Under the pieces are notes generated by a model. The model did no database searches, had not been told where the DNA came from, and saw only the letters and a list, made by a program, of their open reading frames with translations. Below are positions 41,729 to 64,000 of a stretch of DNA of 64,000 nt, piece after piece (the stretch's first letter is position 1; the number at the start of each line of letters is the position of its first letter). This DNA is from an uncultured Bacteroidales bacterium (lineage in GTDB: Bacteria > Bacteroidota > Bacteroidia > Bacteroidales > Muribaculaceae), in NCBI GenBank assembly GCA_947039275.1, contig CAMQYL010000001.1, positions 36,889 through 100,888 of the forward strand, written 5' to 3'. The translations under genes and the position numbers were made by a program.

Positions 41729-43810
41729 ATGAAAACCAGAATTATCATATTGACGAGTATCCTATCTTTCATCATCAACATTGACGCTTTCGCGCAAGGG
41801 GAGCAGAGTGACACTCTGCGGCTGGGGGAGGTGACTGTCAGGGCAGCGCAGCAGTATGTGACGGCGGATGCTGTGGTTTATGTGCCGACTAAGGCTGACA
41901 AGAGGGATGCGCAGAGTGCGGTGGATCTGCTGCGGATGTCGGCTATACCGCAGATTAAGGTCAATCCAGTGGATGACAAAGTGACTGACAACTTCGGCGA
42001 GGATGTCAGCATATTTCTCAATTATCTCCCGGCTGGTAAGGAAGACATTTCCGGGCTTAAAACATCGGATGTGAAGAAAATCGAATATCTCACCTCCCCA
42101 ACCGATCCGCGGTTCAGAGGCGCAAAATCGGTCATAAATATCATCGTCACCGAATACGCATATGGCGGTTACACCAAACTTTCATCCACGCTACGCACTA
42201 TCAGCGACATCTCCGGAGGCGTGGATGTCTACAGCAAATTCGCATACAAACGGATGACTTTTGACCTGTATGCCGCGCTTAAAGAGTCATCGACACACCA
42301 CTCAGGCACATCCAACGATGACCGATACACCGTTGCCGACGGTATCGTCACAAGAAAGGAGACTCCCCAATCGTCTTACCTGCGTGACAGCCGTTATCCC
42401 ATCACCTTCCGCGCCACCTACAATGCACCCACCATGCAGCTGAGCAACGCTGTGGCATTTTCACATACAGCCACACGAGCCAATGACGAAAGCGGACTGA
42501 TAGATTATAATGGAGGAGCATACGGCACAACCACAGAAGCATACCGAAGATATGAGCCTGACATGTCAAACTCGGCGATGTTCTTAGGGTCTTATTATTT
42601 CGAGCTACCCAAAGGCTGGGCATTAAGCATCGTCCCTCAGCTCTCCTATTCACACTACACCGACAATCTCGGCTATTACGTCACTGACTCATCGCCGATT
42701 ATCAGAGACATAGCCGAAGATGCCACCAGCGGAGCCATTGACGGATATTTAGAAAAGACTTTCGGACAATCACATTCGCTCATACTCGGAGTCTCTTATG
42801 AAAATGAGCATAACACCCTCCATTATATCAGAGAAAACAGCAAAGAAACAATCACCTATGATGCCGTAGACGGCTATGCCGGTTACACGTTCAGCAAAAA
42901 CGGATTGACAGCATCTATCGAAGGAGGCATGAAATGGGACAAATCCAAAGCCGGAGACAGCAGCGACCATAGTATTTCGCCGTTTGTCGACTGTGATTTA
43001 CGCTACAGCCCCGATACAAGAAACATGTTCTCCGCAAGCATACGGTATAAGACGACACCTCCTGCGTCCTTTCAGAAAACATCAGCGATATTGCTGGAAA
43101 ACGAGTTTCTATACGTCACAGGCAATGCGTCGCTGAAAAACGACCGACAACTCACAGCCAATCTTGGATACTCATACATCCCGTCAAACCTCATCACATT
43201 AAGCGGATATGCAAGCTATCGCGGAATCTATGACCGAATAACCGAATCATATGCGCCTTACGCAGAGGGGACAAGGCTCCTGCGCACATATGCCAACGAC
43301 GGACGTTACGACCGCATCATGGCAGGTGTATCGCTTTTTTGGAAACCGTTGGACGGAAAGCTCGTAGTCAGTTCTTCGCCAGGATTTGCCCACTATCAGA
43401 TCAGCGGACCTGTGGCAAGATGTTACAACGCATTCCAATTCAACGCCTCCGTCAGAGGAAGCCTGTCGAATTTCTATGCCTCCGCGTCTTTCAAACTCCA
43501 AAGCCGTGAATTAGCCAGTTCAAACAATGCCATATGGAAAGACCGTGACTACTATTCCATCGAAGCCGGCTGGGCAAATGACAATCTAAACGTCCGCCTC
43601 AACGCAGCCAACCTGTTCAATCGCGGATGGGTAAGCATAACCCAGGATATGGAGAGCGAGCTATGCTCCTATTACCGCACATACTACGGCAGCACATACC
43701 ATACCACTCTGTCACTGAGCGTCACCTACACCATCGGTTACGGCAAAAAAATCACCCGCCGCAACGAGATAGGTGAACTCAACCAATCCAGCTCAGCCAT
43801 AATGAAATAA
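41729..43810 (+). CDS. TonB-dependent-receptor-like outer membrane beta-barrel protein (OMP_b-brl_3-like)
   Basis: 693 aa from the internal ATG, with signal peptide MKTRIIILTSILSFIINIDAFAQ and plug-like ..LRLGEVTVRAA...KKIEYLTSP... It is the most divergent member of the family. Confidence 0.7.
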   Translation: MKTRIIILTSILSFIINIDAFAQGEQSDTLRLGEVTVRAAQQYVTADAVVYVPTKADKRDAQSAVDLLRMSAIPQIKVNPVDDKVTDNFGEDVSIFLNYLPAGKEDISGLKTSDVKKIEYLTSPTDPRFRGAKSVINIIVTEYAYGGYTKLSSTLRTISDISGGVDVYSKFAYKRMTFDLYAALKESSTHHSGTSNDDRYTVADGIVTRKETPQSSYLRDSRYPITFRATYNAPTMQLSNAVAFSHTATRANDESGLIDYNGGAYGTTTEAYRRYEPDMSNSAMFLGSYYFELPKGWALSIVPQLSYSHYTDNLGYYVTDSSPIIRDIAEDATSGAIDGYLEKTFGQSHSLILGVSYENEHNTLHYIRENSKETITYDAVDGYAGYTFSKNGLTASIEGGMKWDKSKAGDSSDHSISPFVDCDLRYSPDTRNMFSASIRYKTTPPASFQKTSAILLENEFLYVTGNASLKNDRQLTANLGYSYIPSNLITLSGYASYRGIYDRITESYAPYAEGTRLLRTYANDGRYDRIMAGVSLFWKPLDGKLVVSSSPGFAHYQISGPVARCYNAFQFNASVRGSLSNFYASASFKLQSRELASSNNAIWKDRDYYSIEAGWANDNLNVRLNAANLFNRGWVSITQDMESELCSYYRTYYGSTYHTTLSLSVTYTIGYGKKITRRNEIGELNQSSSAIMK

Positions 43811-43913
43811 AACCCATCGCCACAGCAGCAATATAGACTGTAATATGCTGGCAATCAATGCAATATCTTTAAAATTCCACATTCATAGTCATAATCGCCT
43901 GATTTACAGCCAA

Positions 43914-44096
43914 ATACAGCCTATATTCATAAAAATACTAAAATTAAATTTTCATATCCTCGCAATATCCTTATTATCAATTAGTTACAAAGCACAAAAG
44001 CCAAATAATTTTTCCGTCAAAATAAGCAACAAACGAAAAATAGGCTCTAATTTTGCAGTTTGACATTCATTATTTTTCATCACATTCAGTAATCCG
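43914..44096 (+). promoter_or_regulatory. repeated promoter/leader cassette, copy 1 (upstream of barrel gene 44097)
   Basis: Contains ATACAGCCTATATTCATAAAAATACTAAAATTAAATTTT, AAAGCCAAATAATTTTTC (43997-44014), the -7 box TAATTTTG (44048-44055) and the leader ...TTTTCATCACATTCAGTAATCCGATG. About 80 percent alignable by eye with 46413-46594. Confidence 0.55.
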
Positions 44097-46277
44097 ATGC
44101 AGTTACGTTTCTTTTTATTTGCAGTGGTGCTTACGGCGGAGGCAGTGACAGTCTGCCATGCGCAGGTTGATGTTGATTCTATCGTTGCGGTCTATGAGAG
44201 GGAGCTGGCACTTGACGAGGTCACGGTGACGGCTCAACGCAAGAGCACGAAGGTAATCCGTGGCGGTATATCCTACGACATGGCAGGGAACAAACTGGCT
44301 GACGGGATGTCGATGGCTGACGCTATCAAATTCGTGCCGCTTGTGGCTCCTACGCCTGGGGGTGGCGTGAGCGTGACAGGGAGCAAGCCGGTGAAACTGT
44401 ATCTCAACGGCAATCCGTGGAACATCGCAGCAAGCGATCCTGCCGGGGCGTTGGCGAGTCTCCCAGCCAATTCGGTGGCAAAAGTAGAGGTAATCCTCTC
44501 GGGCGACATCCGCTATCCCGAAGCGCGTGGATATGCCGTGATTGACGTATATACAAAGCAGCGGCTTCTTGACCACTACAATCTATATGCCCGGCTCGTC
44601 GGGGAGACGATGCCTCGCGGCGAGGGGAACATCGCCGCCGACTTCGCCAAAGGAAATGTCACACTCTCGGCTTCATATCTCTACGATGTCGACCGCCAGA
44701 ACAACCAACGCGCCACATGGACGAGCGCATTCCGCTCTCCCCTCTCCGCCCCGCTCTCGGCACGGCGAGAGATGGACGACGGCACCGGCACATGGCAGAG
44801 CCACCTGGGAAGCCTCATGGCGACATGGCAGGCAGACACCCTCAACACGCTCTATGCCGACGTACATGTGTTGGCAAAAATCCAGCATTTCAACACCACA
44901 TGGCACGAAACAGCAGACCTGCATATGCCAGAGGGCATCGTGACTAATGAATATTTTGACCACAACAGGGACTACAACAATTTCACAAAATTAGAGACCA
45001 ACATAATCTGGCAGAATCATCGCCCCTCCGACCGCTCTGAGCGATGGAAAGTAGGTTACCGCTACACATTTGACCCCGATACGCGCTCATATGACGTAGA
45101 AAGCACGACCGGCAATGACTTGTCAGCCCCACAGATCGCCGAAGGAAAAACCCGCGGCAAGCAGCACAACCATCTGCTGTCGGGAATCTACACCCATCCC
45201 ATCAATCACAACAACCGCATCCAAGCCGCCATATGGCAGACCCTGCGATATGGCAGAGCCAAATATCTCATACCCGATACTGGCGAATGGGACACCGACC
45301 TCCGCTACGATTACGCCATCACGGAGGCAGCCATGGCATACAGCGGCAGCTACGGCAAAGTCAATCTCTACGCCTCTGCCGGCATGGAATATGCCCATAC
45401 CAATCTCCGTTACTACGACAGCGACAAGCGGCGTTACGATTATTGGTCGTTAGTGCCATCGCTCTCAGTGGGCTATGCCATCAGCCGCAGCAGTAACATC
45501 AGCCTCAATTACGATTACAGCGTCAAGCGTCCCGACATCATGCAGCTCAACCCATTTGCCGAGTATATTAACCGTCACGGCTGCACCCAGGGCAATCCAT
45601 CGCTGCGTCAGTCGGGCATACACAATGTGCAGTTGTCGTGGTTTAAGATGTGGCAGAAATTCATGGTATCAGCAAGTGCCTCCTACAGCCACGCCACGCA
45701 TCCCATCATGCTGATGCCGACAGAGTCCCTGTCAGACATCTATGTAATGCTATCACGTTACGCCAACATTGACCGCTCCGACATGGCAGGGCTGTCAATA
45801 TTCGGTCGCTTGACCATCCGCAACGGCATGTACCTGTCACTCAACGCCTCCGGTTCGCGCCAATGGCTCCATGATGCAGCGAGTTCACTGTCGCAAAGCA
45901 GCTATGGAGTCAACGTCTACGCCTCCTACGATGCCTCTTTCAGGCATGACTGGGCAGTAGGGGCAAGTTACGGCTACTTCAAAAACCATCCCGAGCCGTT
46001 CACATCCGTCAACTCCATGTACATCAACGATTTCAAGGTCAGAAAAGGATTCCTTGACCGCAGTCTCAACATAGAGCTGGCTCTCAGCATGCCGTTTTCA
46101 CGTCACCGCAAAATATCCCGCACAGTCACCCTCCCGACCGCAGAGATGACCCAGACCAACTGGGCGACAGCCCGCTCCCTGCGTCTGACCCTCTCCTACC
46201 TCCTCGGCGGCAAAGTCTCCAAAGTGAAGCGTGACCGCTCCCTCAACACCACCGACATCACAACCGGCATCGAATAA
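44097..46277 (+). CDS. TonB-dependent-receptor-like outer membrane beta-barrel protein (OMP_b-brl_3-like)
   Basis: 726 aa with signal peptide MQLRFFLFAVVLTAEAVTVCHAQ, ..LALDEVTVTAQRK.., and the family motif ..KRPDIMQLNPFAEYINRHGCTQGNPSLRQS... Confidence 0.8.
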   Translation: MQLRFFLFAVVLTAEAVTVCHAQVDVDSIVAVYERELALDEVTVTAQRKSTKVIRGGISYDMAGNKLADGMSMADAIKFVPLVAPTPGGGVSVTGSKPVKLYLNGNPWNIAASDPAGALASLPANSVAKVEVILSGDIRYPEARGYAVIDVYTKQRLLDHYNLYARLVGETMPRGEGNIAADFAKGNVTLSASYLYDVDRQNNQRATWTSAFRSPLSAPLSARREMDDGTGTWQSHLGSLMATWQADTLNTLYADVHVLAKIQHFNTTWHETADLHMPEGIVTNEYFDHNRDYNNFTKLETNIIWQNHRPSDRSERWKVGYRYTFDPDTRSYDVESTTGNDLSAPQIAEGKTRGKQHNHLLSGIYTHPINHNNRIQAAIWQTLRYGRAKYLIPDTGEWDTDLRYDYAITEAAMAYSGSYGKVNLYASAGMEYAHTNLRYYDSDKRRYDYWSLVPSLSVGYAISRSSNISLNYDYSVKRPDIMQLNPFAEYINRHGCTQGNPSLRQSGIHNVQLSWFKMWQKFMVSASASYSHATHPIMLMPTESLSDIYVMLSRYANIDRSDMAGLSIFGRLTIRNGMYLSLNASGSRQWLHDAASSLSQSSYGVNVYASYDASFRHDWAVGASYGYFKNHPEPFTSVNSMYINDFKVRKGFLDRSLNIELALSMPFSRHRKISRTVTLPTAEMTQTNWATARSLRLTLSYLLGGKVSKVKRDRSLNTTDITTGIE

Positions 46278-46412
46278 CCCACTCCCAACAACAAAAATAT
46301 ACAAACATACCACCACATCAAACCTGAATATAGATTATAAACTGCTATAAATCACCAATATAGACCCAAAGATAATAAGAAATCGGTCTTAACAGCTTGA
46401 TTATCAGATAAA

Positions 46413-46594
46413 TACAATCTATATTTTCAAAAAGACTAAAAATAAAATTTTGCACTTTCATAACTCTCTAATTTTAAGCACATTACAAAGCGCAAAAGCC
46501 AAATGATTTTTCTCTCAATATCAGCAAGAAACGGAAAATATGCTCTAATTTTGCAGTTTGACATTAATTAATTTTCATCACATTAAATAATCCG
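46413..46594 (+). promoter_or_regulatory. repeated promoter/leader cassette, copy 2 (upstream of ABC exporter)
   Basis: TACAATCTATATTTTCAAAAAGACTAAAAATAAAATTTT, AAAGCCAAATGATTTTTC (46495-46512), -7 box TAATTTTG (46546-46553), and leader ...TTTTCATCACATTAAATAATCCGATG. Confidence 0.55.
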
Positions 46595-48820
46595 ATGCAC
46601 TTTCCATACCACCGACATCGAATGAACATGTTGCGCAGGTTTCCTTGGGTGATGCAGAAGGATGCGATGCAGTGTGGCATCGCATGTCTGGCTATGGTGT
46701 GCCGACACTACGGCAAGGCTTATTCGCTGGCTGCGCTGTCGGAGATATGTTTCGCCACGGTGCAGGGGGTGTCGCTGCTGGGGCTTAAGGAGGCGGCGGG
46801 GAAGCTCGGCTTTGATACAGCGGCTCTGCGGCTGTCGGCGCAGAGCCTTGCCGACAAGCCGCTGCCGTGTATCCTCCACTGGAATCAGGAGCACTTCGTG
46901 GTGCTCTACAAGGTACGTCGAGGACGCTATTATGTGGCAGACCCGGGCAAAGGACTCGTCAAGTACACCGAGGAGGAGTTTTGCAAGCACTGGTGCAGTA
47001 CGTGTGCCGACGGAACGGATAAAGGCATAGCCTTGATGCTCCAGCCCAACGCCGACTTCGGCAAAACCATGTCGGAGGGCAGCGGCGAACGCCGTTCGTT
47101 CCGCTTCCTGATGGGTTATCTGCGGCAATACCGCCGCTATTTCACCCAGATCATCCTCGGATTGCTCGTGGGCTGCGTGTTGCAGCTCATCATGCCGTTT
47201 ATGACGCAGTGGATTGTGGATATAGGCATCAAGCACCAGGACATTGGCTTCATATGGCTTGTGCTCCTCGGCGAACTGATGATAGTGACCGGACGCACCG
47301 CCACCGACTTCATACGCCGCTGGCTGCTGCTCCACATATCCATGCGCATCAACATCTCGCTCATCAGCGACTTCTTCATCAAGCTGTTGAAGCTGCCCAT
47401 GTCGTTTTTCGACACCAAACTGATGGGCGACCTTCTGCAGCGCATCGGCGACCACTCGCGCATCCAGTCGTTCCTGACCAACCAGACCCTCAGCGTGGTG
47501 TTCACATTCCTCAGTTTCATCATCTTCGGATTCGTTCTTCTCATTTACGATGTTCTGATTTTTGGGGTGTTTATCATCGGCAGCGGCATCTATGGCGCGT
47601 GGATAGCGACATTCCTGAAGCGGAGAAAGGTGATAGACTACGAGCTGTTTGAGCAGCAGGCACGTAACCAAAACAAAGTATACCAGTTCATCACCTCCAT
47701 GCAGGAGATCAAGCTCCAGGACTGCGAGCAGCGGCGACGCTGGGAGTGGGAGGATACCCAAGCCGACCTCTTCGACGTGCAGATGAAGTCGCTGCGCCTC
47801 CAGCAGACCCAGGAAGCCGGCTCCATCTTCATCAACGAGGTCAAGAACATCGTCATAACCGTCATAGCAGCCACCGCCGTCATCAACGGCGAGATGACAC
47901 TCGGAGCCATGCTCGCCGTGCAGTATATCATAGGGCAGCTCAATTCGCCCGTAGAGCAACTGATGACATTCGTCTACTCACTCCAGGATGTGAAAATATC
48001 ACTCGAGCGCATCAACGAAATCCACGAAGGCAAAAACGAGGAGAGCGACGACCGCCAGCTCACGGCAATCACCCGACCCGACAAATCAATCACCATCGAC
48101 GGCATCGACTTCAAATATGACCCGCATGCGCTCCGCAAGACCCTCGACGGCGTGACATTCACCATACCCGAGGGCAAGGTAACCGCCATAGTGGGCGCAT
48201 CGGGCAGCGGCAAAACCACCCTTATCAAGCTGATGCTCGGCTACTACAAGGTCTCGGCAGGACGCATCGCCATAGCCGGGCATGACATCAACGAGTACAA
48301 TCCGCGCTGGTGGCGCCGGCAGTGCGGAGTAGTGATGCAGGACGGCGTAATCTTCTCCGAATCCATAGCCCGCAACATCGCCGTAGACGATGGCGAGATA
48401 GACGTAGAGCGGCTCGAACGGGCAGCCCGCATAGCCAACGTCCACGACTATATCATGGGCTTGCCCCTCAAATACAACACCCTCATAGGGCGCGACGGCG
48501 TAGGGCTGAGCCAAGGGCAGAAACAGCGCATACTCATAGCACGCGCCGTATATAAAAACCCCGACTACATATTTCTCGACGAAGCCACCAACTCGCTCGA
48601 TGCGCGTAACGAGCGCGTCATAGTCGAGAACCTTGCCGAATTTTACCGGGGCAGAACAGTCGTGGTCGTGGCTCACCGCCTCTCCACCGTCAGAGATGCC
48701 GACCAGATAATAGTCGTCGACGGCGGACGCATCGTGGAGCAAGGCACGCACACCTCCCTCACCAACCAAAAAGGAGTCTATTACAATCTCGTCAAAAATC
48801 AACTTGAATTAGGCAACTGA
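46595..48820 (+). CDS. peptidase C39 domain-containing ABC transporter (double-glycine leader cleavage/export)
   Basis: 741 aa. C39 motifs QKDAMQCGIACLAMV, ..HWNQEHFVVLYKV.. and VADPGKG. Six TM helices. Walker A GASGSGKTT, signature LSQGQKQR, Walker B IFLDEAT. The start is ambiguous (46595, 46622 or 46628). Confidence 0.92.
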   Translation: MHFPYHRHRMNMLRRFPWVMQKDAMQCGIACLAMVCRHYGKAYSLAALSEICFATVQGVSLLGLKEAAGKLGFDTAALRLSAQSLADKPLPCILHWNQEHFVVLYKVRRGRYYVADPGKGLVKYTEEEFCKHWCSTCADGTDKGIALMLQPNADFGKTMSEGSGERRSFRFLMGYLRQYRRYFTQIILGLLVGCVLQLIMPFMTQWIVDIGIKHQDIGFIWLVLLGELMIVTGRTATDFIRRWLLLHISMRINISLISDFFIKLLKLPMSFFDTKLMGDLLQRIGDHSRIQSFLTNQTLSVVFTFLSFIIFGFVLLIYDVLIFGVFIIGSGIYGAWIATFLKRRKVIDYELFEQQARNQNKVYQFITSMQEIKLQDCEQRRRWEWEDTQADLFDVQMKSLRLQQTQEAGSIFINEVKNIVITVIAATAVINGEMTLGAMLAVQYIIGQLNSPVEQLMTFVYSLQDVKISLERINEIHEGKNEESDDRQLTAITRPDKSITIDGIDFKYDPHALRKTLDGVTFTIPEGKVTAIVGASGSGKTTLIKLMLGYYKVSAGRIAIAGHDINEYNPRWWRRQCGVVMQDGVIFSESIARNIAVDDGEIDVERLERAARIANVHDYIMGLPLKYNTLIGRDGVGLSQGQKQRILIARAVYKNPDYIFLDEATNSLDARNERVIVENLAEFYRGRTVVVVAHRLSTVRDADQIIVVDGGRIVEQGTHTSLTNQKGVYYNLVKNQLELGN

Positions 48821-48824: not shown

Positions 48825-49025
48825 ATGGCATCAGACAACGAAAAAATAGAGCTGCGCAGCGAGAAAGTCCGCCACCTCATCTCCGAAATCCCCCCGGCAC
48901 TCGTCCGCTGGGGCATCGCCATCATAGCCATAATCACCGCCGCCCTCCTCCTCGCCGTCTGCCTCCTCCCCTATCCCTACTCCGCCGGCGAATCCATCCT
49001 CCGCCACCTCCTCGACTCGATATAG
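48825..49025 (+). pseudogene. truncated HlyD-family periplasmic adaptor (N-terminal 66 aa only)
   Basis: MASDNEKIELRSEKVRHLISEIPPALVRWGIAIIAIITAALLL... matches the N-terminal cytoplasmic tail plus TM of Bacteroidetes HlyD adaptors that follow C39-ABC genes, which are normally about 400 aa. The frame ends at 49025, and the 49113-49353 inverted repeat begins 88 nt downstream. Confidence 0.5.
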
Positions 49026-55488: not shown

Positions 55489-55499
55489 GCCCCTTGACA

Positions 55500-55543
55500 T
55501 TCCTCGTAATGCAAGACATCCAATGTCTAAGCATTACGAGGAA
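55500..55543 (+). terminator. long hairpin (terminator/attenuator candidate) directly after precursor B
   Basis: TTCCTCGTAATGC-A-AGACAT-CCA-ATGTCT-A-GCATTACGAGGAA, followed by TGATTTTCTT. A near-copy lies at 59174-59215. Confidence 0.55.
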
Positions 55544-55662
55544 TGATTTTCTTATCCACTACAATTATATTCCACAATCTCTGTTATATTTCGCCCCATG
55601 AGGTATTCGTCCTCTCTACGAAAAAGCATATGACCCATGCCCTATAAACGAAAAAGAGTTTT

Positions 55663-55728: not shown

Positions 55729-58074
55729 ATGTCAGCTGTCTTTGGAAATCTCAAACGTATTCTTTCCCTTTTAATTTCTCTCATCTGGTGTGTCATTACA
55801 ACCCTTGCAGATGTCACGGGGACAGTGATTGATGATAATCAGACTCCGGTTGAATTCGTCAATGTGATATTGATGGATTCACGTGACTCTTTGTATATCA
55901 ATGGCACCACAACGGACTCGGCAGGACGTTTCTCTATCATCAATCCTGACGGACGTGGAGATATGCTCAGATTGTCGTGCATCGGTTATCAGGAAATATA
56001 CCGCAAGTTGAATAATCATGATGAAAATGCTGGAGTTATCACAATGACACCCAAGGGCCATCAGCTCGGCAGCGTGACTGTCACAGCTGACAGACCTATG
56101 TTTTACCAGGACAAAGGTTCTCTTGTCACCAATGTGCAGGGGACTGTACTGGGTGATTTATATTCGACAGATGATGTGTTGGCGCAGATACCAGGGATGG
56201 TACTAACCCCGACAGGAGCATTGGAGGTGTTCGGTCTCGGCAATCCGATAATCTACATCAACAACCGGCGCATAAGCAGCAATGCTGAATTACAGCAACT
56301 GACACCCAAGGACATCAAAAGCATACAGCTCATCACCAACCCTGGCGCGAGTTACGATGCCAGCGGACGTGCCGTGCTTAAAATAACGACTATACGCAGA
56401 GGCGATGGATTATTAATGGAAATCGGGGGAGATTTCCGCCAAAATGAGCGATCGAGTTTCGGCGGAAACGTCAATATCGGTTACAGACATAACGGCGTGA
56501 ACTTTTCAGCAAATTACGGCTACGACAGTTATGCGATGCAGGCTCGGCAGCCTTCCGGCAAGGAGTTGCATCTTGACAGCCACACGTACACATTTATACA
56601 AGATACTGACGGTGACGGCAGAGAAAAAGAACATACATGGGCGTTAAAAACCGACTATGAAATCAATGACCGACATGTAATAGGCATATCGTGGGATGCC
56701 TCCGCGTCAAAAAGAGATGATCACAGACTCTCTGAAATGGATTATCAGCTTGACAGCGAAGCTGCGCAACAGAGTCATGTAATCAACGATGACTCTAACA
56801 AAACCCATTACAATCATGTCAACGTATTCCACAATGCCCAGTGGCACAAACAATTGACATCGCGTCTCAATCTGGATTACGTATCCAATACAAACCGATA
56901 CAATCAAATCTCTGACGAGACCAATGAGGGAGTCCACCGACTCTCGCCTTTCTCAGGGAAAAGCTCACTGGATATCTACGGCGCAAAATTTGCCATGGAC
57001 TACCAGATCAGTGATGCCCTGAGCATGTCGGCTGGTGCCGACTACAGCCATGTCGGCAATGATGGAAACATGTTCAGCGATACCGCAGTCATCCCATCGT
57101 CAGATTACACAAATTCCGAAGATAGGTATGCGGCATATGCCGAACTTAATAGCACCTTAAATCAAATATCTATAGGAGCTGGCATCCGCTACGAGTATAT
57201 GAAAATGGATTACAACGACCATCTTGACAGCGAAGCCAATGTCAGACGGCGTTTCAGCAACGTCTATCCATCCCTATCACTTTCGCATAACTGTAAAGGC
57301 TGGGGCAATACCCTCTCGTTTTCGTCACGCACTCGGCGTCCGTCATTCAGTCAGCTAAGCGCCATGAGCTATTACCAGAACCGCTACATGTATCAGCACG
57401 GCAATCCGCTTCTTGTACCATCCACATCCTATATCCTCCAATGGGACTCTGGTTACAAATTTGTCAATTTCTCGCTTGGATATACATATACCAAAGATTT
57501 CATCACCAACGATATGTACACGATTGATTATGACGGTACCACACAAATCATAAGTTCATATGCCAACCGAGATAAGGTACAGTATATCAAAGCAAACGTG
57601 ACTATTCAAAAAAACATTGCATGGTGGAGACCGACCCTCTCTGCCGGAGTCAACAAACAGTTTTTCCAGACCGACTATCTTGGTGAAACAATCAACTGCA
57701 ACCGTCCCCAATACTATCTGACTTTCAACCAGTACTTCACCCTGCCTAAGTCAACGACGATTTCCGCTTACTATTACTTCAACAGCGGAGGCGATCAAGG
57801 CAGCCTCCGCTTCAAGCCGTACCAGATGCTTAACATAGGCATACAAAAATCCTTCCTCAACAAACGTCTGACCGTACGTCTGAAAGCAAACGATATTTTC
57901 CACACCATGAAATTCAAGGTCTCCGAATATCGAGGAAATATACACTTCTGGCAGACGGAAGACTATCGTATGTGGAACTATTCCGTAAGCATCACCTATC
58001 GTCTCAACAAGAAAAAGAAAATCAAATATCGAGGTGACGAATCAATCTCAGATGAAATCGAACGCATAGATTGA
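55729..58074 (+). CDS. TonB-dependent-receptor-like outer membrane protein with CarboxypepD_reg-like N-domain (OMP_b-brl_3-like)
   Basis: 781 aa. ..DVTGTVIDDNQTPVEFVNVILMDSRDSLYINGTTTDSAGRFSI.., the plug-like ..IKSIQLITNPGASYDA.., and family motif ..RRPSFSQLSAMSYYQNRYMYQHGNPLLVPS... Confidence 0.85.
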   Translation: MSAVFGNLKRILSLLISLIWCVITTLADVTGTVIDDNQTPVEFVNVILMDSRDSLYINGTTTDSAGRFSIINPDGRGDMLRLSCIGYQEIYRKLNNHDENAGVITMTPKGHQLGSVTVTADRPMFYQDKGSLVTNVQGTVLGDLYSTDDVLAQIPGMVLTPTGALEVFGLGNPIIYINNRRISSNAELQQLTPKDIKSIQLITNPGASYDASGRAVLKITTIRRGDGLLMEIGGDFRQNERSSFGGNVNIGYRHNGVNFSANYGYDSYAMQARQPSGKELHLDSHTYTFIQDTDGDGREKEHTWALKTDYEINDRHVIGISWDASASKRDDHRLSEMDYQLDSEAAQQSHVINDDSNKTHYNHVNVFHNAQWHKQLTSRLNLDYVSNTNRYNQISDETNEGVHRLSPFSGKSSLDIYGAKFAMDYQISDALSMSAGADYSHVGNDGNMFSDTAVIPSSDYTNSEDRYAAYAELNSTLNQISIGAGIRYEYMKMDYNDHLDSEANVRRRFSNVYPSLSLSHNCKGWGNTLSFSSRTRRPSFSQLSAMSYYQNRYMYQHGNPLLVPSTSYILQWDSGYKFVNFSLGYTYTKDFITNDMYTIDYDGTTQIISSYANRDKVQYIKANVTIQKNIAWWRPTLSAGVNKQFFQTDYLGETINCNRPQYYLTFNQYFTLPKSTTISAYYYFNSGGDQGSLRFKPYQMLNIGIQKSFLNKRLTVRLKANDIFHTMKFKVSEYRGNIHFWQTEDYRMWNYSVSITYRLNKKKKIKYRGDESISDEIERID

Positions 58075-58174
58075 CATATCACAATGTGCAATATAGGTGT
58101 TAAATCATTAAAAATCAGAGTTTTACCTTTAATTATTCGTTATTATAGATATAACGTCCTAATTTGCAGCCGAT

Positions 58175-58355
58175 TACAATCTATATTTCAAAAAAGCCTA
58201 AAAATTAAAAACCAACTATCTGTAACACATTGATTATATGAATGTTACATAACGTCAAAGCCAAATGATTTTTTCACCCAAACATGGCTCCAAGAATCAA
58301 AATTCAGTATCTTTGCGAATTAACTACCTGTTTTTATCAATCAACACAATCTATC
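58175..58355 (+). promoter_or_regulatory. repeated promoter/leader cassette, copy 3
   Basis: TTACAATCTATATTTCAAAAAAGCCTAAAAATTAAAAACC, AAAGCCAAATGATTTTTTC (58258-58276) and -7 box TATCTTTG (58308-58315). Confidence 0.5.
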
Positions 58356-58733
58356 ATGAGTGTATTTTTTAAGAGTATTGCTGCTATAACGTTAGGCTTG
58401 TTGGCAGTATCGTGTGGCAGCGACAATGACGAGGATGTGATGCAGCCTATGAGCCTGTCGGATGGTTCTGTCAAAATGTGCCTTCGAGGAGATACACAAT
58501 CCATCAGCATCAGTGGCGGCAGCGGCAACTTCACTGTTGCGGTCAATGGTAATTCCGTCACTGCTGCCTGTGACGGACGCATCATCAGACTCACGCCCGA
58601 AGCATTTGGCGATGCCACGCTTACGGTAACTGACGCTTCAACTGGAGCAACGGCACAGTGCACCGTCAACGTCGGTAAATCGTTTGCCGAATTCCGTCCT
58701 TCATACACCATCGACCCGTTTTTCGGCGAGTAA
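58356..58733 (+). CDS. small lipoprotein with Ig-like (Big_2-like) fold
   Basis: 125 aa from the internal ATG, with lipobox ..LGLLAVSCGSDND and ..ISISGGSGNFTVAVNGNSVTAACDGRIIRLTPEAFGDATLTVTD... It ends at TAA 58731-58733, in the same frame as the next ORF. Confidence 0.55.
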   Translation: MSVFFKSIAAITLGLLAVSCGSDNDEDVMQPMSLSDGSVKMCLRGDTQSISISGGSGNFTVAVNGNSVTAACDGRIIRLTPEAFGDATLTVTDASTGATAQCTVNVGKSFAEFRPSYTIDPFFGE

Positions 58734-58745: not shown

Positions 58746-59153
58746 ATGGACTGCGACTTGCAGTCATCTCCGCGCCAGTGGGTAATTACCACCCTGAACG
58801 GGCATAAACTCCACGAAGGGACTTTCACCACGACATATATGCGAGACGAGACCGTGACCAACCAAGGCGAGGATTACAACTTCGCCCTTTTTACCCTTGA
58901 AATGAACGAGGGCAGCACTACACACCATTACATAGCAGGCGACATGATGACCATCGCAGACGGCACTCCCTGGTGGGCAATCCTATTCCCCGGCACAGGC
59001 TGGCACGCTCTGAACCAGACTGCACTTGATAAAGCCCTGACACGCTCAACAATGCCCACGACCATCATCGGCATCTCATTCTTCGGCACCGATGCTGACC
59101 TGCTCAACCCCTTGGTGTCATGGCGAGCCACAGATCCAGTTCCCCTCCCATAA
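58746..59153 (+). CDS. hypothetical protein (same frame as the upstream lipoprotein; possibly its detached C-terminal domain)
   Basis: 135 aa with no signal peptide and no recognised motif. The ATG is 12 nt after the upstream TAA, in frame. Confidence 0.4.
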   Translation: MDCDLQSSPRQWVITTLNGHKLHEGTFTTTYMRDETVTNQGEDYNFALFTLEMNEGSTTHHYIAGDMMTIADGTPWWAILFPGTGWHALNQTALDKALTRSTMPTTIIGISFFGTDADLLNPLVSWRATDPVPLP

Positions 59154-59173
59154 TCCCCATACACCCATCCCCA

Positions 59174-59219
59174 TCCTCGTAATGCAAGCAATCCAATGTC
59201 TCAGCATTACGAGGATTTT
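59174..59219 (+). terminator. second copy of the long hairpin (terminator/attenuator candidate)
   Basis: TCCTCGTAATGC-AAGCAATCCAATGTCTC-AGCATTACGAGGA followed by TTTTCC. It shares the stem and most of the loop with 55500-55543. Confidence 0.55.
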
Positions 59220-59325: not shown

Positions 59326-61620
59326 ATGAATCGGACAATACTTGCAGCAGCATTTTGCCTAATAATGCTTACGGCTTTCGGGCGTGAGATTACAGGGAGT
59401 GTCGTATCACGGACTGACGGTGAGGGAGTCATCGGGGCGTATGTGTCAATGTTTGAGAGGGATTCGTTGTTACAGGTATTGCAATCAGATGCGGAGGGGT
59501 TGTTTTCATTAGATGTTACTGATTCGGCGAAGTGTTCGCTGACCGTTACAGCATTGGGATACAGGGATGTGGAGATTGATTTGCTGACGGATACAATCAG
59601 CAGCCCCCTGAAAGTCTACATGGATGAAAATGACGGCATCGCATTGGGCGAGGTGGTTGTGTCGGCTGACAAGAGCCAGATGGTCAGGCGTACTGCCAAC
59701 GGGCAGATATTCTATCTATCCAAAGATGCCAAGGAGCTTAAAAATCCGTTTCAGGCGTTACAGGAAGTGCCGCTGCTGATTGCCGACGAAGCTAATTCCA
59801 CAATCAGGATGCTTGACGGCAAAACACCCCTCATACTGATAGACGGCAACAGGGTCAACTCCGGCATAGCACCGCTAAACCCTTCGGAAATCGAATCGGT
59901 GGAGGTTGTCAATGTCGTCCCGGCACGCTACCTGCAAGAAGGCTATGACGGCATCATAAACATCAAACTGAAAAAGCATGCCGGACCCTACTTGTGGGCA
60001 GAAGCAGCGACACGTCACGAGCTACCTCTACACAACGGTTTCGGAGTAGGCTACTTCGAAGTGGGGAATCAGAAGTACAGTCTCTACGGTCGTGGAGTCT
60101 ACAATTATACCCATAACGATGACACCGACCGCGACACATGGCGCGAAGCTCCCACATACTCCCAGCAGTTCACATCGGCAGAACGCAATAACGGACACTC
60201 ATGGATCGGCGAACTGCTGTTTAAGTGGAACGTTGCCCCCAAAGACTATATCGCCATCCATGGATATATCAACCGTGACCACACTTCATCTCACACCACT
60301 GGCGCAGGAGAATATACAGCAGATGACTGTCAGCCTTACAGCTTCACTGCCGACGATCGAAACGACTGCACTGTAGTGACCTCAAGCCTCTATTACAAGC
60401 ACACCTTTGAGCCATCGTCAGACAACATCCTGGAAGTCAGAGCCGCATATAACCATAACAGCAACATCCTTGACTCGTGGCGCTCGGAACAGTATGGATC
60501 GACTGTCTCTCCTCTCGCATCATCGTTTGACAATCTGCGCAACTCAGGCAATGTGGACGTGGACTATTCAAAATCCTACGCATCGGGCATCTCCATATCG
60601 TTTGGCAACCACCTATCCCTACAGTCCGATAGGATACATCAGATAAGCTCTCCCTACCCCATCTTCCATCATCGGAAACTCAACGAGTACCTGTTTGGCT
60701 CAGTCAGTGGAAAGATTCATAACATCTATTATCTTGCCTCGCTCGGATTGGAGATGATATGGCTCAAAGCCGGAGAAACCGACAACGACTATATGCGTCC
60801 ACGCGCATCCCTTAGCGGCACATGGGCTATCACCAGCAACAATTCGCTCCAACTGGGCTATACCCTCTCTAACGAAACGCCTCAGATATCCGAACTCAAT
60901 CCATACGACACCTCCACAGATCCGTTGCTCGTAGTCAGTGGCAACCCCTATCTCAAGCCGCAGACCACTCATCGCGTGAACCTCAACTATACCTTCAATC
61001 GTGGCAATCTTTACCTGCAGCCATCGCTGTCATATCGCGTAATGTCTGACATGATAGAGCCTGGAGGATATATGGTCGGCGATGTCTACCATAGCACATA
61101 CCTCAACACCGGACATTTCTCCCAGCTGACAGCTTCAATCTATGCAAGCTACCGCTTCCGATGGGGACGCATAGGCATCGGAGGTGGATGGAGCGAGAGC
61201 TATTACACGGATGCCCCGGCTCGGGGAGCATTTCTGTCAATGATGGATTTCAATGCCCGCGCAGGCAGATTTTCATTCTACGCCAATGTCGACTACACCA
61301 ACCGTGAAATCGGCAAGACCTCTGTGGTGCGCAATCTCCGTCCCACCATGGCACAGGTGCAGGTAAACTACAACATAACCCCCGATTTCTACATAGCCCT
61401 CTGCCTACAGAACATCACAGGCGAAGTCCGCACCCGCACCGTCTTAGATGACGGAGCCTACCACAGCATCACCCGTACAAACTACCGTGACCGCAACCTG
61501 CGCCCGTGGATTCTCCTCCGCTACACCTTCCGCAAAAACGCCCACCGAAAAATCGACCTCGGCAACAACATCCTCCGCGCCGAGGAAGAAGGCATCCGCC
61601 TGACCCCCTCCCCCAAGTAA
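59326..61620 (+). CDS. TonB-dependent-receptor-like outer membrane protein with CarboxypepD_reg-like N-domain (OMP_b-brl_3-like)
   Basis: 764 aa from the internal ATG, with signal peptide MNRTILAAAFCLIMLTAFG, ..ITGSVVSRTDGEGVIGAYVSMFE...DAEGLFSL.., and family motif ..ETPQISELNPYDTSTDPLLVVSGNPYLKPQ... Confidence 0.85.
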   Translation: MNRTILAAAFCLIMLTAFGREITGSVVSRTDGEGVIGAYVSMFERDSLLQVLQSDAEGLFSLDVTDSAKCSLTVTALGYRDVEIDLLTDTISSPLKVYMDENDGIALGEVVVSADKSQMVRRTANGQIFYLSKDAKELKNPFQALQEVPLLIADEANSTIRMLDGKTPLILIDGNRVNSGIAPLNPSEIESVEVVNVVPARYLQEGYDGIINIKLKKHAGPYLWAEAATRHELPLHNGFGVGYFEVGNQKYSLYGRGVYNYTHNDDTDRDTWREAPTYSQQFTSAERNNGHSWIGELLFKWNVAPKDYIAIHGYINRDHTSSHTTGAGEYTADDCQPYSFTADDRNDCTVVTSSLYYKHTFEPSSDNILEVRAAYNHNSNILDSWRSEQYGSTVSPLASSFDNLRNSGNVDVDYSKSYASGISISFGNHLSLQSDRIHQISSPYPIFHHRKLNEYLFGSVSGKIHNIYYLASLGLEMIWLKAGETDNDYMRPRASLSGTWAITSNNSLQLGYTLSNETPQISELNPYDTSTDPLLVVSGNPYLKPQTTHRVNLNYTFNRGNLYLQPSLSYRVMSDMIEPGGYMVGDVYHSTYLNTGHFSQLTASIYASYRFRWGRIGIGGGWSESYYTDAPARGAFLSMMDFNARAGRFSFYANVDYTNREIGKTSVVRNLRPTMAQVQVNYNITPDFYIALCLQNITGEVRTRTVLDDGAYHSITRTNYRDRNLRPWILLRYTFRKNAHRKIDLGNNILRAEEEGIRLTPSPK

Positions 61621-61726
61621 AAATATATCCCTCTCACATTAAATATAGACCATATATATCTGAATGTCAGTGTATTATGTGCCATACCCCATGTATATTA
61701 CTCTTAACACATTGATTAATAGAAGA

Positions 61727-61933
61727 TTACAATCTATATTTTGAAAAAGACAAAAATTAATTTCTCAGCAGTCTATAACCATCTGATTATTACATCATTA
61801 CAAACCAGTGATGCCAAATCATTTTTTGCCATATTTTCGTTAAACGCTTAATATAACCGTAAATTTGTGCTCAAATAATCTTCCATTAAAGACCAGAAAC
61901 CACCTTCAAATTCAGGTCTGATATATCGCATAA
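61727..61933 (+). promoter_or_regulatory. repeated promoter/leader cassette, copy 4
   Basis: TTACAATCTATATTTTGAAAAAGACAAAAATTAATTTC, ATGCCAAATCATTTTTTGCC (61811-61830) and -7 box TAAATTTG (61860-61867). Confidence 0.5.
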
Positions 61934-64000
61934 ATGAAACCACTCATCATTATCGTGCTGGCTATTGCTACCACATCTTCAAGTCTGATAGCTGGAGCAA
62001 TGGAACAGCTGAAAGGGGTCGTGATTGACGACTTCAGCATGCCGATAGAACTTGCATCTGTGAGGATGCTGTCGGCTGACAGCACTTTCATTGACGGTGC
62101 GGTTACAGACTCTTGCGGACGGTTTTCTATGCGTCTGCTGCCTGATGCTCGGTATGTGTCTGTGTCCGCTTTGGGTTATGAGGATGTGTCATTGGGAATT
62201 TCTTCGCTGTCCGACACAATCAGGCTGCATACTCCCACCCTGAATTTAGGGGAAGTTACGGTCAATGGCGCTAAGAACCCGGTGACTCTTAACGGCAGTA
62301 ACATCATAGTGGATATTCAGCACACTCTGCTTGGTGACATGCCCACAACCGAAGATGTGCTTAACCATCTGCCATCAGTGTCAGGAAGCGGAGGCACATA
62401 TCAAGTATTCGGGCGTGGAGTCGCCACCATATACATCAACAACCGAAAAGTTACTGACAACGGACAACTTTCCCGCTTGCGACCATCGGACATCCGTAAA
62501 ATTGAGGTGGTGCGTAATCCAGGGGCTGAATATGACTCCGATACCCCTGCCGTGATACGCATATATCTCAAGCGTTCGGCTTTTGACGGATTAGGTGTAG
62601 ATGCAATGGTCTACGTTAGCCAAGGACGACGTTTTTCCGACTACGAACAGCTCTCTCTTACATACGGCATCGGAGCTGTGAATCTATTTTTTACCGCTGC
62701 CAATTCATCATCTCGACTAAGAAGCGACCAGACAAATCTGCAAAGCACCTACACTTCTGCCGGAATATGGGAGATGATATCCGATATGCCACGGTGGGAT
62801 TCAGAATACTATAATTTATCGCTTAACGGCGGCTTAAACATCACTGTGTCACAAGCGCATCAATTAGGTGCAAAATTCAGCTATACCTCAGACACACAAC
62901 GTAACGGCGGAGGGAAATCATCATATATGACCCTTGATGATTCCCCTTATGAGATCTTAGCATCCTCAAGCTGCAGTCCGCAAGGATACCACCAATATCT
63001 GACCAACATATATTATGAGGGCAGGCTGTCAGAGAAAACGGAACTCGTATTCAACGGAGATTACATAAACCGCCGCTCACACAATACAGATGAAATCACC
63101 GAGGAAGGCAATCTCACACCACTGCACGCAGTCGAAAACATCAACATGGCTACCTACAACTTATGGTCATCAAATCTTAAACTGAATTGGAAGCCGACTG
63201 ACCCTTTTGATTTTACCTTCGGTTGCGATGGAGATATAATCAAGCAAAACCGCACAAGCAATCAGACCGGAAACATATATACCTCTCAACTTGACTCTAA
63301 GGAGTCAAAATATGGCTTGTTTGCCCAAGGGAGATTCGACCTACAGAAATGGAGTTTTTCTTTAGGACTGAGATATGAATGGAACAGTATGCGTTACACA
63401 GACGGCATCAGTCAGGTGCAATTGCTTGACAAGGACTATTGCCGTCTCTATCCCTCCGCATCCATATCTACCAAATGCGGCAAAACCGATATGACCCTCT
63501 CCTTCACATCCAAAATCCGTCGCCCAACATTCTATCAGTTACGCAACAGCAGCGAATATTTCAACCGCTATGAGACCACTGAGGGCAACCCTATGTTGCT
63601 GCCGACATACACTTATGACTTGACATATTCCGTGGGTTACTCAGACATCACCGCCAACATCGGATACCGCTGGATCAAGGATTACATTGCCGAAGAAAAT
63701 ACCATCGATACAGCCAATCCGCTGCATATGACTTCGCGTCCATTTAACAAACCACTCTACACGGCTTTTGATATCGGCATAAATTACAATAAGACATTTG
63801 GATGCTATCACCCCTATCTGTCGGCTGAATTATCCAAGACATTTTACACCATGGAAAACCGGACGTTAAATACTCCGACCGTAGGCAAAACACCCTCAAT
63901 GCGATTCACTCTGTCTAATTATATCACCATAGGAGGCTATAAGCTCTATCTTGATATAAAGTATTCTCCTGCCGGTTCGTATTGTCAGTTTTGGGAGGAC
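61934..64000 (+). CDS. TonB-dependent-receptor-like outer membrane protein (OMP_b-brl_3-like), 3' end outside window
   Basis: Not in the ORF track because it has no stop in the window. My translation from ATG 61934 is open to base 64000: MKPLIIIVLAIATTSSSLIAGAMEQLKGVVIDDFSMPIELASVRMLSADSTFIDGAVTDSCGRFSM..., with family motif ..IRRPTFYQLRNSSEYFNRYETTEGNPMLLPT... Confidence 0.8.
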   Translation, partial: MKPLIIIVLAIATTSSSLIAGAMEQLKGVVIDDFSMPIELASVRMLSADSTFIDGAVTDSCGRFSMRLLPDARYVSVSALGYEDVSLGISSLSDTIRLHTPTLNLGEVTVNGAKNPVTLNGSNIIVDIQHTLLGDMPTTEDVLNHLPSVSGSGGTYQVFGRGVATIYINNRKVTDNGQLSRLRPSDIRKIEVVRNPGAEYDSDTPAVIRIYLKRSAFDGLGVDAMVYVSQGRRFSDYEQLSLTYGIGAVNLFFTAANSSSRLRSDQTNLQSTYTSAGIWEMISDMPRWDSEYYNLSLNGGLNITVSQAHQLGAKFSYTSDTQRNGGGKSSYMTLDDSPYEILASSSCSPQGYHQYLTNIYYEGRLSEKTELVFNGDYINRRSHNTDEITEEGNLTPLHAVENINMATYNLWSSNLKLNWKPTDPFDFTFGCDGDIIKQNRTSNQTGNIYTSQLDSKESKYGLFAQGRFDLQKWSFSLGLRYEWNSMRYTDGISQVQLLDKDYCRLYPSASISTKCGKTDMTLSFTSKIRRPTFYQLRNSSEYFNRYETTEGNPMLLPTYTYDLTYSVGYSDITANIGYRWIKDYIAEENTIDTANPLHMTSRPFNKPLYTAFDIGINYNKTFGCYHPYLSAELSKTFYTMENRTLNTPTVGKTPSMRFTLSNYITIGGYKLYLDIKYSPAGSYCQFWED

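Follow-up and report, generated by a model that had tools for sequence, protein, structure and literature searches.

We describe a family of gene cassettes for cysteine-rich peptides in Bacteroidales, in which the gene of a radical S-adenosylmethionine (rSAM) maturase is followed by that of an outer-membrane barrel. The starting point is a 64,000-nt stretch of DNA (the window) from an uncultured Bacteroidales bacterium (Muribaculaceae; GCA_947039275.1, contig CAMQYL010000001.1, positions 36,889-100,888 of the forward strand), which encodes seven such barrels, here called B1 to B7. Judged by synteny and sequence comparison, the barrel that directly follows the maturase (B1 after rSAM A, B3 after rSAM B) is inherited together with it as an integral part of a widespread Bacteroidales cassette. 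It probably serves as a peptide-specific gate across the outer membrane, and we tentatively favour peptide-specific, TonB-energised uptake into the periplasm, together with sensing by a TPR regulator, over export.

Co-inheritance of maturase and barrel

An alignment of rSAM B was scanned against one genome per species, giving 51 loci, 50 of them in Bacteroidota (Muribaculaceae, Prevotella, Paraprevotella, Bacteroides, Lepagella and Heminiphilus). Three loci end at the maturase without downstream sequence, and 47 were usable for rSAM-barrel synteny. In all 47, the first large gene 3' of the rSAM-B homologue encodes a barrel of the TonB-type superfamily on the same strand, the exceptions to direct adjacency being a short precursor gene that comes first in two loci and a second rSAM copy that intervenes in one. 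The gap between the two genes is at most 70 nt in 19 loci, and in most of the others a precursor gene fills it. In the window, rSAM B and B3 overlap in the letters ATGA, as an earlier note on this DNA had read. The first slot is held by B3-like, B1-like or B5-like barrels (the last in L020, L021, L022 and L027), after which there is often a second barrel and then the gene of a C39-peptidase ABC exporter (PCAT; 31 loci); most cassettes hold one barrel. This test covers the rSAM-B clade, the metagenome scan with rSAM A having returned a single near-identical locus. A contig of Candidatus Sulfotelmatobacter (L057, Acidobacteriota) carries five distantly related rSAM genes in tandem, without a barrel.

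Over 38 complete loci, the median pairwise identity is 59% for PCAT, 41% for rSAM and 26% for the first barrel, which is thus the fastest-diverging component, as expected of the part that meets the hypervariable core peptide. Clusters of barrels are nested in rSAM clades and parallel the classes of core peptide. The invariant synteny, the fast divergence and the nested clusters together argue that the maturase-adjacent barrel is a co-inherited core component and no chance neighbour. The earlier note had assigned the barrel coupled to rSAM B functionally to the peptide system; taken barrel by barrel, this assignment is strong for B1 and B3, given the synteny and the nesting, weaker for B2 and B4-B6, and fails for B7, which lies 39 kb from the peptide loci among housekeeping genes and is unlinked. 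Variation of barrels independently of the rSAM gene, which the same note had named as a sign of plain neighbours, is not seen for the first-slot barrels and is partly seen for those in the second slot. The content of the B2 slot differs in 'Bacteroidales bacterium M7' (a mouse-gut member of Muribaculaceae) and in L068, where rSAM A and B1 are kept and a different short barrel replaces B2. In the M7 locus (L007), an additional barrel gene of 2.2 kb separates B2 from PCAT, corresponding to window 46512-46631. The tie of B4, B5 and B6 to the peptide system, given by their position and by shared upstream sequences, appears weaker.

Some related cassettes (L034, L046, L047, L050, L007 and L012) carry additional genes, for a Branch-glycosyltransferase/methyltransferase fusion, UDP-galactopyranose mutase, DUF6734 proteins and an OPT oligopeptide transporter. 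In view of the Branch-glycosyltransferase and similar extra genes, some of the peptides of these cassettes may be glycosylated.

Cassette genes and the fold of the barrels

The region between 36 and 64 kb of the window consists of two paralogous cassettes, both on the + strand. The order in cassette A is TPR_A, small_A, precursor A, rSAM A, B1, B2, the C39-ABC exporter and tm66; in cassette B it is TPR_B, small_B, rSAM B, B3, precursor B and B4, followed by a lipoprotein gene, orf135, B5, B6 and an eighth barrel. The general cassette comprises a regulator with TPR, transmembrane and LuxR-type domains, a DUF3244-like small protein, a Cys-rich precursor with a GG leader, an rSAM/SPASM maturase, one or more barrels, a C39-ABC exporter and a 66-aa HlyD stub. 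The genes are as follows.

B1, 41729..43810 (+): first-slot barrel of cassette A, of a subfamily invisible to Pfam; assigned with hhalign, AlphaFold2 (AF2) and Foldseek
B2, 44097..46277 (+): second-slot barrel of cassette A; PF14905
B3, 53098..55272 (+): first-slot barrel of cassette B, its start overlapping the rSAM B stop; PF14905
B4, 55729..58074 (+): barrel with CarboxypepD_reg domain; PF14905, PF00593, PF13715
B5, 59326..61620 (+): barrel with CarboxypepD_reg domain, by Pfam
B6, 61934..64000, running off the window (+): barrel with CarboxypepD_reg and Plug domains, by Pfam
B7, 584..2734 (-): OMP_b-brl_3 barrel of 716 aa, with bPH_4, DUF218, CinA and TsaD as neighbours
TPR_A, 36928..38568 (+): regulator of cassette A, with lipobox, periplasmic TPR domain, transmembrane helix (residues 372-399) and cytoplasmic LuxR-type HTH
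small_A, 39565..39933 (+): secreted protein of ~122 aa, paralogue of small_B (45% identity, C-terminal half nearly identical)
precursor A, 40006..40215 (+): GG leader ...SAIAGG and core with 4 Cys, from the translation
rSAM A, 40191..41711 (+): radical SAM/SPASM maturase of 506 aa (PF04055; SPASM, PF13186; Fer4_12)
PCAT, 46595..48820 (+): C39-peptidase ABC exporter with Peptidase_C39, ABC_membrane and ABC_tran domains, resembling TIGR03796/TIGR01193
tm66, 48825..49025 (+): 66-aa protein with a single transmembrane segment, HlyD-type adaptor stub
TPR_B, 49581..51242 (+): regulator of cassette B with the architecture of TPR_A, including transmembrane helix and lipobox; resembles the BT3442 family (NF053779)
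small_B, 51440..51820 (+): secreted protein of 126 aa with DUF3244-like Ig fold
rSAM B, 51830..53101 (+): radical SAM peptide maturase of 423 aa (PF04055)
precursor B, 55294..55488 (+): leader ...PELLSEMEALEIRGG and core with 5 Cys, from the translation
lipoprotein gene, 58353..58733 (+): predicted surface lipoprotein upstream of B5, signal ...LLAVSC-GSDNDED, weak match to Ig-like BiPBP_C
orf135, 58746..59153 (+): open reading frame (ORF) between the lipoprotein gene and B5

All seven barrel ORFs, six in the last 22 kb of the window and one in the first 41 kb, begin with an N-terminal hydrophobic signal segment, and the picture given by the earlier note, of diverged paralogues packed into the peptide loci, stands. 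Its assignment of them to OMP_b-brl_3 holds by Pfam for six of the seven: B2 (E about 1e-49), B3 (6e-18), B4 (1e-57), B5 (1e-16), B6 (1e-27) and B7 (2e-72) match PF14905 with 61-245 bits against a gathering threshold of 27 bits. B1 has no match in Pfam or NCBIfam, yet is homologous to the others by profile and fold. PF00593 also matches B4 and B7 (the latter at 5e-11), Plug matches B5 and B6, and the three genes with a CarboxypepD_reg N-domain are B4, B5 and B6. Pairwise identities of 17-28% bear out old duplication or recruitment, B1 and B3 each having orthologues of their own elsewhere. Just beyond the window, and before the locus ends, L061 shows an eighth paralogue behind B6 (773 aa, 28% identity to B4); B6 itself is 771 aa there at full length. 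A SusD-like partner was found in none of the ORFs scanned, neighbours of the barrels included, as the earlier note had also reported; nor do the barrels belong to SusC/RagA, the best score for the model TIGR04056 being 38 bits (B5), against a cutoff of 368. A sequence search of the PDB with B7 gave no match.

B1 belongs to a large family (295 matches, nearly all annotated 'hypothetical', with Pfam domains recorded for one only), a subfamily of barrels that escapes Pfam detection. The B1-family profile aligns with a profile of B3 orthologues and the other paralogues over 619 columns (hhalign, 99.7%, E 1e-25). The AF2 model of B1 (pLDDT 82, pTM 0.78) matches only TonB-dependent transporters when compared with the PDB by Foldseek, with BtuB1 of B. 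thetaiotaomicron, FemA, FrpB, Cir and FepA at the top; the alignments to BtuB, FepA, Cir, FpvA and others span ~700 columns (E down to 4e-18, TM-scores 0.5-0.57), and a BtuB:TonB complex is also among the matches. A non-barrel identity of B1 is ruled out by the profile and fold matches. All seven barrels have the TonB-dependent-transporter fold and belong to its OMP_b-brl_3 branch of Bacteroidota, and the large barrel with an N-terminal plug that marks these transporters is present in the B1 model and in the PF00593 and Plug matches. In L059 (8001-14297), three tandem B1-family barrels (697, 699 and 696 aa) lie by RteC and TraG-like genes of a conjugative element.

The motif L.EV.V.A, which the earlier note had called plug-like, is present in all seven barrels (LGSVTVTA in B4) and is better described as a TonB-box-like strand. 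In the form L.(E/S)V(T/V)V.(A/S/G) it occurs in all eight paralogues, directly after the signal peptide in B1, B2, B3 and B7, whereas in B4, B5, B6 and the eighth barrel the CarboxypepD_reg domain immediately precedes it. Both family consensuses keep the motif, and in the B1 model it falls within residues 1-38, which are disordered and lie ahead of the plug. The TonB box of BtuB is DTLVVTA, and by this likeness the barrels have a putative TonB box of their own. A second motif proposed in that note, the C-terminal-half hallmark P....L......GNP.L.P, is likewise found in all seven, in B1 as the variant GNASL. All paralogues continue for ~20 aa beyond the last barrel strand in a charged tail, which in the B1 family reads GYGKK..R.NE.GE....SAIMK (e.g. 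window 43744-43807) and has no ordered structure in the model; in this family, conservation reaches 90% or more at ~44% of the last 36 positions, against 22% overall.

The precursors have a leader ending in ...ELLSEMExLxIxGG that is common to the loci (homologous leaders in >30 of them) and Cys-rich cores that are hypervariable; a related strain has two copies of precursor A. rSAM B has 1103 homologues. Its best NCBIfam models are SPASM maturases of Cys-rich peptides, every one below its cutoff, and no curated equivalog is reached (best TIGR04463, 126 bits against a cutoff of 525). Maturase, Cys-rich GG precursor and PCAT are encoded together, as in rSAM/SPASM cassettes for Cys-rich peptides that are made on the ribosome and then modified post-translationally (RiPPs). 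Searches of Pfam and NCBIfam gave no match for the precursors, the small proteins, tm66 or orf135, and orf135 has no homologue in the other loci. The acidic residues that follow the Cys of the lipoprotein signal are what we take to be a surface-export signal.

The C39-ABC exporter and its GG-leader substrates conform to type I secretion, of which a full adaptor and TolC would be the remaining parts. Neither a full HlyD nor a TolC/OEP protein is encoded in the window ORFs or in the cassette ORFs scanned in 47 loci, in accord with the earlier note, which had seen no TolC-like channel; a TolC gene may lie in another part of the genome. Instead, tm66 follows the exporter gene, and homologues of it lie directly 3' of PCAT in at least 15 loci. 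Its 603 relatives fall into two length classes (60-90 aa and 150-240 aa), of which the forms of 214-239 aa carry HlyD_3, and tm66 is homologous to the N-terminus of these short HlyD_3 proteins. We therefore regard tm66 as the cytoplasmic tail and transmembrane segment, or stub, of a membrane-fusion adaptor; the alternative that it is an immunity peptide was set aside, given the HlyD_3-bearing relatives. A full HlyD-type adaptor is typically 350-450 aa long, and none of the best 150 tm66 matches is near that length. TonB/Exb genes are absent from the window.

The two TPR proteins consist of a lipobox signal, ~330 periplasmic residues with TPR repeats, one transmembrane helix, a Lys/Arg run and a C-terminal domain whose profile matches HTH domains of the LuxR/FixJ type (FixJ at 1e-4, then VraR, EvgA and NarL). 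By this layout and these matches, TPR_A and TPR_B are one-component transmembrane regulators with a periplasmic sensor. The AF2 model of small_B is a beta-sandwich (pLDDT 85-92 across the folded part); among PDB structures it is best matched by 3d33, a DUF3244 structure named as a BT_3441 homologue. In L062/L063 (5600-6092), from strains whose B4 is identical, gene calling yields no more than a 58-aa fragment of small_B, and the gene looks disrupted.

Possible uptake, export and rival roles of the barrel

According to the uptake reading, the leaderless, cross-linked peptide would bind its cognate barrel on the cell exterior and be drawn by TonB energy into the periplasm, where the TPR domain of the membrane-anchored LuxR-type regulator would detect it and switch on the cassette promoters. 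Producers would autoinduce, and strains with only the regulator and the barrel would eavesdrop. B2, B4, B5 (with the surface lipoprotein), B6 and the eighth barrel would serve as additional receptors of like kind, and for the peptide's exit from the producer outer-membrane vesicles, the same barrel or a second barrel could be considered. Peptide binding, TonB dependence, direction of transport, TPR sensing and exit route are what we infer from the genes. A complete pheromone circuit across the two membranes of gut Bacteroidales, with uptake through the barrel, readout by the lipid-anchored TPR-transmembrane-LuxR protein and a possible part for the DUF3244-like protein, is a doubtful proposal in this full form; barrel, maturase and peptide would then diversify together like pherotypes.

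Uptake is favoured because several observations suit it and because there is a strong prior that such barrels import. The TonB-dependent transporters from biosynthetic gene clusters that have been characterised are mostly importers, and in fold, plug and TonB-box-like motif the barrels are of the importer type. Intact B3-clade barrels are kept in several independent settings that lack a functional maturase: beside a truncated rSAM gene in L006 and L069, with a TPR-HTH regulator only in L065/L066 (63% identity, at least 24 contigs), and alone in L001/L002. Contigs from four public runs join window position 49023 to 53097 via 25 other letters; those strains, therefore, lack TPR_B, small_B and rSAM B at this place and have B3 immediately after PCAT and tm66. 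The regulators combine a periplasmic TPR domain with a cytoplasmic LuxR-type HTH, an OPT oligopeptide importer adjoins the barrel in L012, a predicted surface lipoprotein precedes B5, and the extra barrels in tandem resemble a repertoire of receptors.

Several points weigh against this reading. The peptide needs a way out, and with the adaptor reduced to a stub and neither TolC nor a full membrane-fusion protein (MFP) in any scanned cassette, its first exit from the producer is a gap in the uptake model; in ~28 loci a single barrel is the sole exit candidate, which fits export better. The place of the barrel gene, flanked by those of maturase and exporter and often with translational coupling, is the one expected of a gene for production or export. 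The barrels beside truncated maturases could reflect recent decay. The closest widespread homologues of B1 (40% identity) lie outside peptide loci, some adjoining a cNMP-binding regulator, and the barrels end in the conserved charged tail in place of the terminal aromatic residue of the beta-signal of classical transporters. Export was also what Makarova et al. 2022 (PMC8939145) predicted for PF14905 proteins in graspetide loci.

Export itself, in which PCAT would free the peptide into the periplasm and the barrel would release it with TonB energy in place of TolC and MFP, is possible, at an estimate clearly short of even. The truncated adaptor, the absence of MFP and TolC genes just described, the adjacency of rSAM and barrel in 47/47 loci with frequent overlap or a tiny gap, the usual order rSAM, barrel, PCAT, and the single barrel of most cassettes all suit it. 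There is precedent in Oar, which is needed for PopC secretion (PMC6434023), and the literature holds similar predictions or questions (PMC8939145, PMC10352776). B4-B6 also have a CarboxypepD_reg N-domain, as Oar does. However, nearly all known proteins of the TonB-dependent-transporter fold are importers, and intact B3-clade barrels are kept without maturase, precursor and exporter, also as pairs of TPR regulator and barrel. Nor does export account for the tandem barrels that come without peptides of their own (B4, B5, B6 and the eighth), for the surface lipoprotein beside B5 or for the OPT importer of L012.

That the barrel confers immunity by receptor replacement or as a decoy seems improbable. 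The peptides would then be bacteriocins using barrels of this family to enter their targets, and a producer would have an insensitive variant linked to its cassette, much as producers of BSAPs in Bacteroides reportedly carry a resistant orthologue of the targeted outer-membrane protein. The barrels are the fastest-diverging part of the cassette and co-vary with the peptide class, the sensitive receptors could be same-clade barrels that other genomes encode outside any cassette, and no recognisable immunity gene is seen in the cassettes. Microcins use Cir and FepA as receptors, and PDB 9nn6 is among the B1 fold matches. The pair of TPR and DUF3244-like proteins also heads a MACPF operon in B. 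thetaiotaomicron (PMC2954219). An extra resistant copy, however, protects only where it displaces the sensitive one from its site, and cassette barrels and cassette-less orthologues lie in different genomic contexts: in the few contexts sampled, the cassette-less B3 orthologues are by glycosyltransferase/ferritin or TPR/thioredoxin-like genes and not at a common site as for BSAPs. Conservation in 47/47 loci and translational coupling to the maturase suggest a role in the pathway, and antibacterial activity of these peptides is not known. There is a similarly slim chance that the barrel serves metal or nutrient uptake, with a Cys-rich chelator peptide in the periplasm (bufferin- or methanobactin-like) and import of the metal or the metal-peptide complex. 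The Cys-rich cores, the release into the periplasm expected of a PCAT without a tunnel, the copper transporter OprC among the fold matches, the precedent of MbnT and the ferritin and thioredoxin-like neighbours of cassette-less B3 orthologues are in line with it. Core length and Cys spacing are hypervariable, though, unlike a conserved chelating scaffold; the related SPASM maturases (the NCBIfam neighbours) form thioether links, which use up thiols; the ferritin adjacency is one case; and no metal-responsive regulator was seen in the cassettes. It is very improbable that the barrels are ordinary nutrient receptors that happen to lie near peptide genes. B7 is unlinked, the nearest widespread homologues of B1 are in non-peptide contexts, the B2 slot varies among close strains, and B5 and B6 are tied to the locus by position and a shared promoter element; yet for B1 and B3 such a role is excluded by synteny in 47/47 loci across genera, nesting in rSAM clades and ATGA coupling, and the 64 kb contain no further copy of the element shared by B2, PCAT, the lipoprotein-B5 unit and B6.

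Known systems, strain mosaics and upstream elements

MbnT is a TonB-dependent transporter whose gene lies in methanobactin RiPP operons and which is specific for the cluster's own product. The present cassettes share with it a transporter conserved inside a RiPP cluster, here by 47/47 synteny and nested clusters, and receptors that occur without the biosynthetic genes, as MbnT does in non-producers. Methanobactin is a conserved copper chelator with export by a MATE protein and a periplasmic binding protein, whereas the barrel cassettes have hypervariable cores, PCAT export and no binding protein, and the sequence kinship of the barrels to MbnT is only at the superfamily level. In the FecA-FecR-FecI system and in SusC-like/anti-sigma systems, an outer-membrane receptor and a single-pass inner-membrane protein control their own locus. 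As there, a receptor is encoded with a single-pass inner-membrane protein whose periplasmic domain receives the signal; unlike there, the TPR-transmembrane-LuxR protein is predicted to bind DNA itself, with no extracytoplasmic-function sigma factor, the barrels lack an STN domain, and the signal in the cassette model is a peptide made by the same locus. The RRNPP receptors of Firmicutes are cytoplasmic TPR-HTH receptors of pheromones that return through Opp. Likewise, TPR is here fused to HTH beside a secreted peptide and its exporter, and signal and receptor diversify together, but the TPR domain of the cassettes is periplasmic and the barrier is the outer membrane. The idea of TPR and pheromones was also raised in PMC10352776.

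In B. thetaiotaomicron, the MACPF operon begins with the pair BT_3442/BT_3441 (PMC2954219). The resemblance of TPR_A and TPR_B to the BT3442 family of NCBIfam is weak (1e-17 and 7e-10, below cutoff), small_B resembles 3d33, and the same gene order heads a locus rich in secreted or pore-forming proteins. The sequence similarity is weak, however, and the cargo there consists of MACPF and lectin-like proteins, not rSAM peptides. Oar, a TonB-dependent transporter of Myxococcus xanthus required for PopC secretion (PMC6434023), is a protein of this fold implicated in outward transport and suggests how the outer membrane may be crossed without TolC. Its layout of CarboxypepD_reg, plug and barrel resembles that of B4-B6 and the eighth barrel, whereas the maturase-adjacent B1 and B3, and B2, lack the N-domain. 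Oar also differs in that its cargo is a 50-kDa protease and its gene lies outside peptide cassettes.

The association of PF14905 with RiPPs in Bacteroidetes was already noted in 2022 and 2023, and the finding is not categorically new. Makarova et al. 2022 (PMC8939145) found pfam14905 enriched beside graspetide/SPASM loci of Bacteroidetes and predicted a role in export, and a 2023 study (PMC10352776) described Bacteroidales RiPP clusters with PCAT and an outer-membrane protein but no MFP, asking about a distinct transport mechanism. The family and the PCAT-barrel pairing without adaptor are the same as here; in those studies they were a list entry and an open question, and the barrels were not analysed. 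New are the family of rSAM-only cassettes for Cys-rich GG-leader peptides, mostly in Muribaculaceae and also in Prevotella, with its obligate rSAM-barrel adjacency, as well as the barrel subfamily undetected by Pfam, the adaptor stub, the TPR-LuxR regulators and the barrels that survive without a maturase.

The peptide natural products of Muribaculaceae and Prevotella, both of them dominant in the gut, are essentially uncharacterised. Peptides exported by diderm bacteria must cross the outer membrane; here the TolC/adaptor route appears dismantled, and the barrel is the maturase's one constant partner. Should the barrel export, it would, to our knowledge, be only the second case of this kind besides Oar and would give RiPPs a secretion route of their own. 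In the case of import, barrel and TPR-LuxR regulator would form a receptor/sensor pathway for peptides in a phylum without known peptide signalling, and the pheromone circuit, if true, would be the first peptide quorum-sensing system in Bacteroidota known to us and a new use of the TonB-dependent-transporter fold. For genome mining, the combination of an ELLSEMExLxIxGG leader, rSAM, barrel(s), PCAT and stub provides a handle.

Contig LUJR01000009 of M7 is almost a copy of the window, with shared blocks that are 94-97% identical. It has a precursor-B-like gene upstream of TPR_B, and from window position 55299 on a different cassette replaces precursor B and B4 onwards, encoding a TPR protein, a small protein, a third rSAM type and two DUF6734 proteins. 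The same stretch is present in many mouse-gut metagenomes. Among RNA runs, none was found to contain the 8.5-kb stretch; runs flagged 'RNA?' contain only ~15% of the words, and they were rejected as evidence of expression, as they resemble DNA contigs of a related strain when compared with the window.

The upstream sequences shared within the cassettes comprise two elements, located by repeat searches as follows.

shared upstream element, copy 1, 43889..44096 (+): before B2 (alignment A4)
shared upstream element, copy 2, 46387..46594 (+): before the ABC exporter
shared upstream element, copy 3, 58149..58352 (+): before the lipoprotein-orf135-B5 unit
shared upstream element, copy 4, 61702..61933 (+): before B6
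42-nt perfect hairpin, copy 1, 55498..55545 (+): directly after precursor B, -29.8 kcal/mol, z = -8.5 (repeat D6)
42-nt hairpin, copy 2, 59173..59216 (+): after orf135, -20.5 kcal/mol, z = -6.9

The first element (~170 nt) contains two repeated TAAC..TGATT..TTACA half-sites and a TAnnTTTG box, the Bacteroides -7 promoter consensus, and these four copies are the only ones in the 64 kb. It is this shared element alone that bears on co-regulation of barrel and peptide genes, the second point that the earlier note had named as a check. As a family-wide operator it was rejected, since outside this species only the M7 genome has it. The 42-nt hairpin opens a stretch common to the upstream regions of B4 and B5, and may be an attenuator or an RNA-stabilising element. 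The palindrome GGGACATGCCNTGGCATGTCC was considered as an operator at the starts of the TPR genes and rejected as REP-like (resembling repetitive extragenic palindromes), with 8 sites window-wide (at 479-557, 16547-16616, 33090-33155, 36880-36901 and 49529-49550; 0 expected by chance) that include housekeeping intergenic regions; all are intergenic, and three times they form pairs 45-57 nt apart. The copy at 49524-49555 recurs at very high depth in many unrelated contigs from metagenomes. Between TPR_A and small_A lies an intergenic inverted-repeat element of ~245 nt (38672-38917) that matches L007 6671-6914 in both orientations. A scan for sigma-70 promoters and terminators was discarded as uninformative for Bacteroidota.

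Divergent beside cassette A, on the (-) strand at 35732-36682, is a gene for a TraB/PrgY/GumN protein with a signal peptide (5.8e-60). In Enterococcus, PrgY and TraB act in pheromone shutdown; a conserved role of the gene as a 'pheromone shutdown' partner of the cassettes was rejected, as it is near one other cassette only (L049). Further upstream, a non-ribosomal peptide synthetase (NRPS) locus at 24053-33682 encodes a 2425-aa NRPS (two AMP-binding, two condensation and two PP-binding domains and a terminal NAD_binding_4 reductase), a MatE/HATPase_c_2 fusion and a phosphopantetheinyl transferase. It is directly preceded by a partner-switching module (21400-24044) consisting of a Cache/HAMP-SpoIIE phosphatase-HATPase_c_2 protein and a STAS protein, and a ferritin gene lies at 20662-21279.

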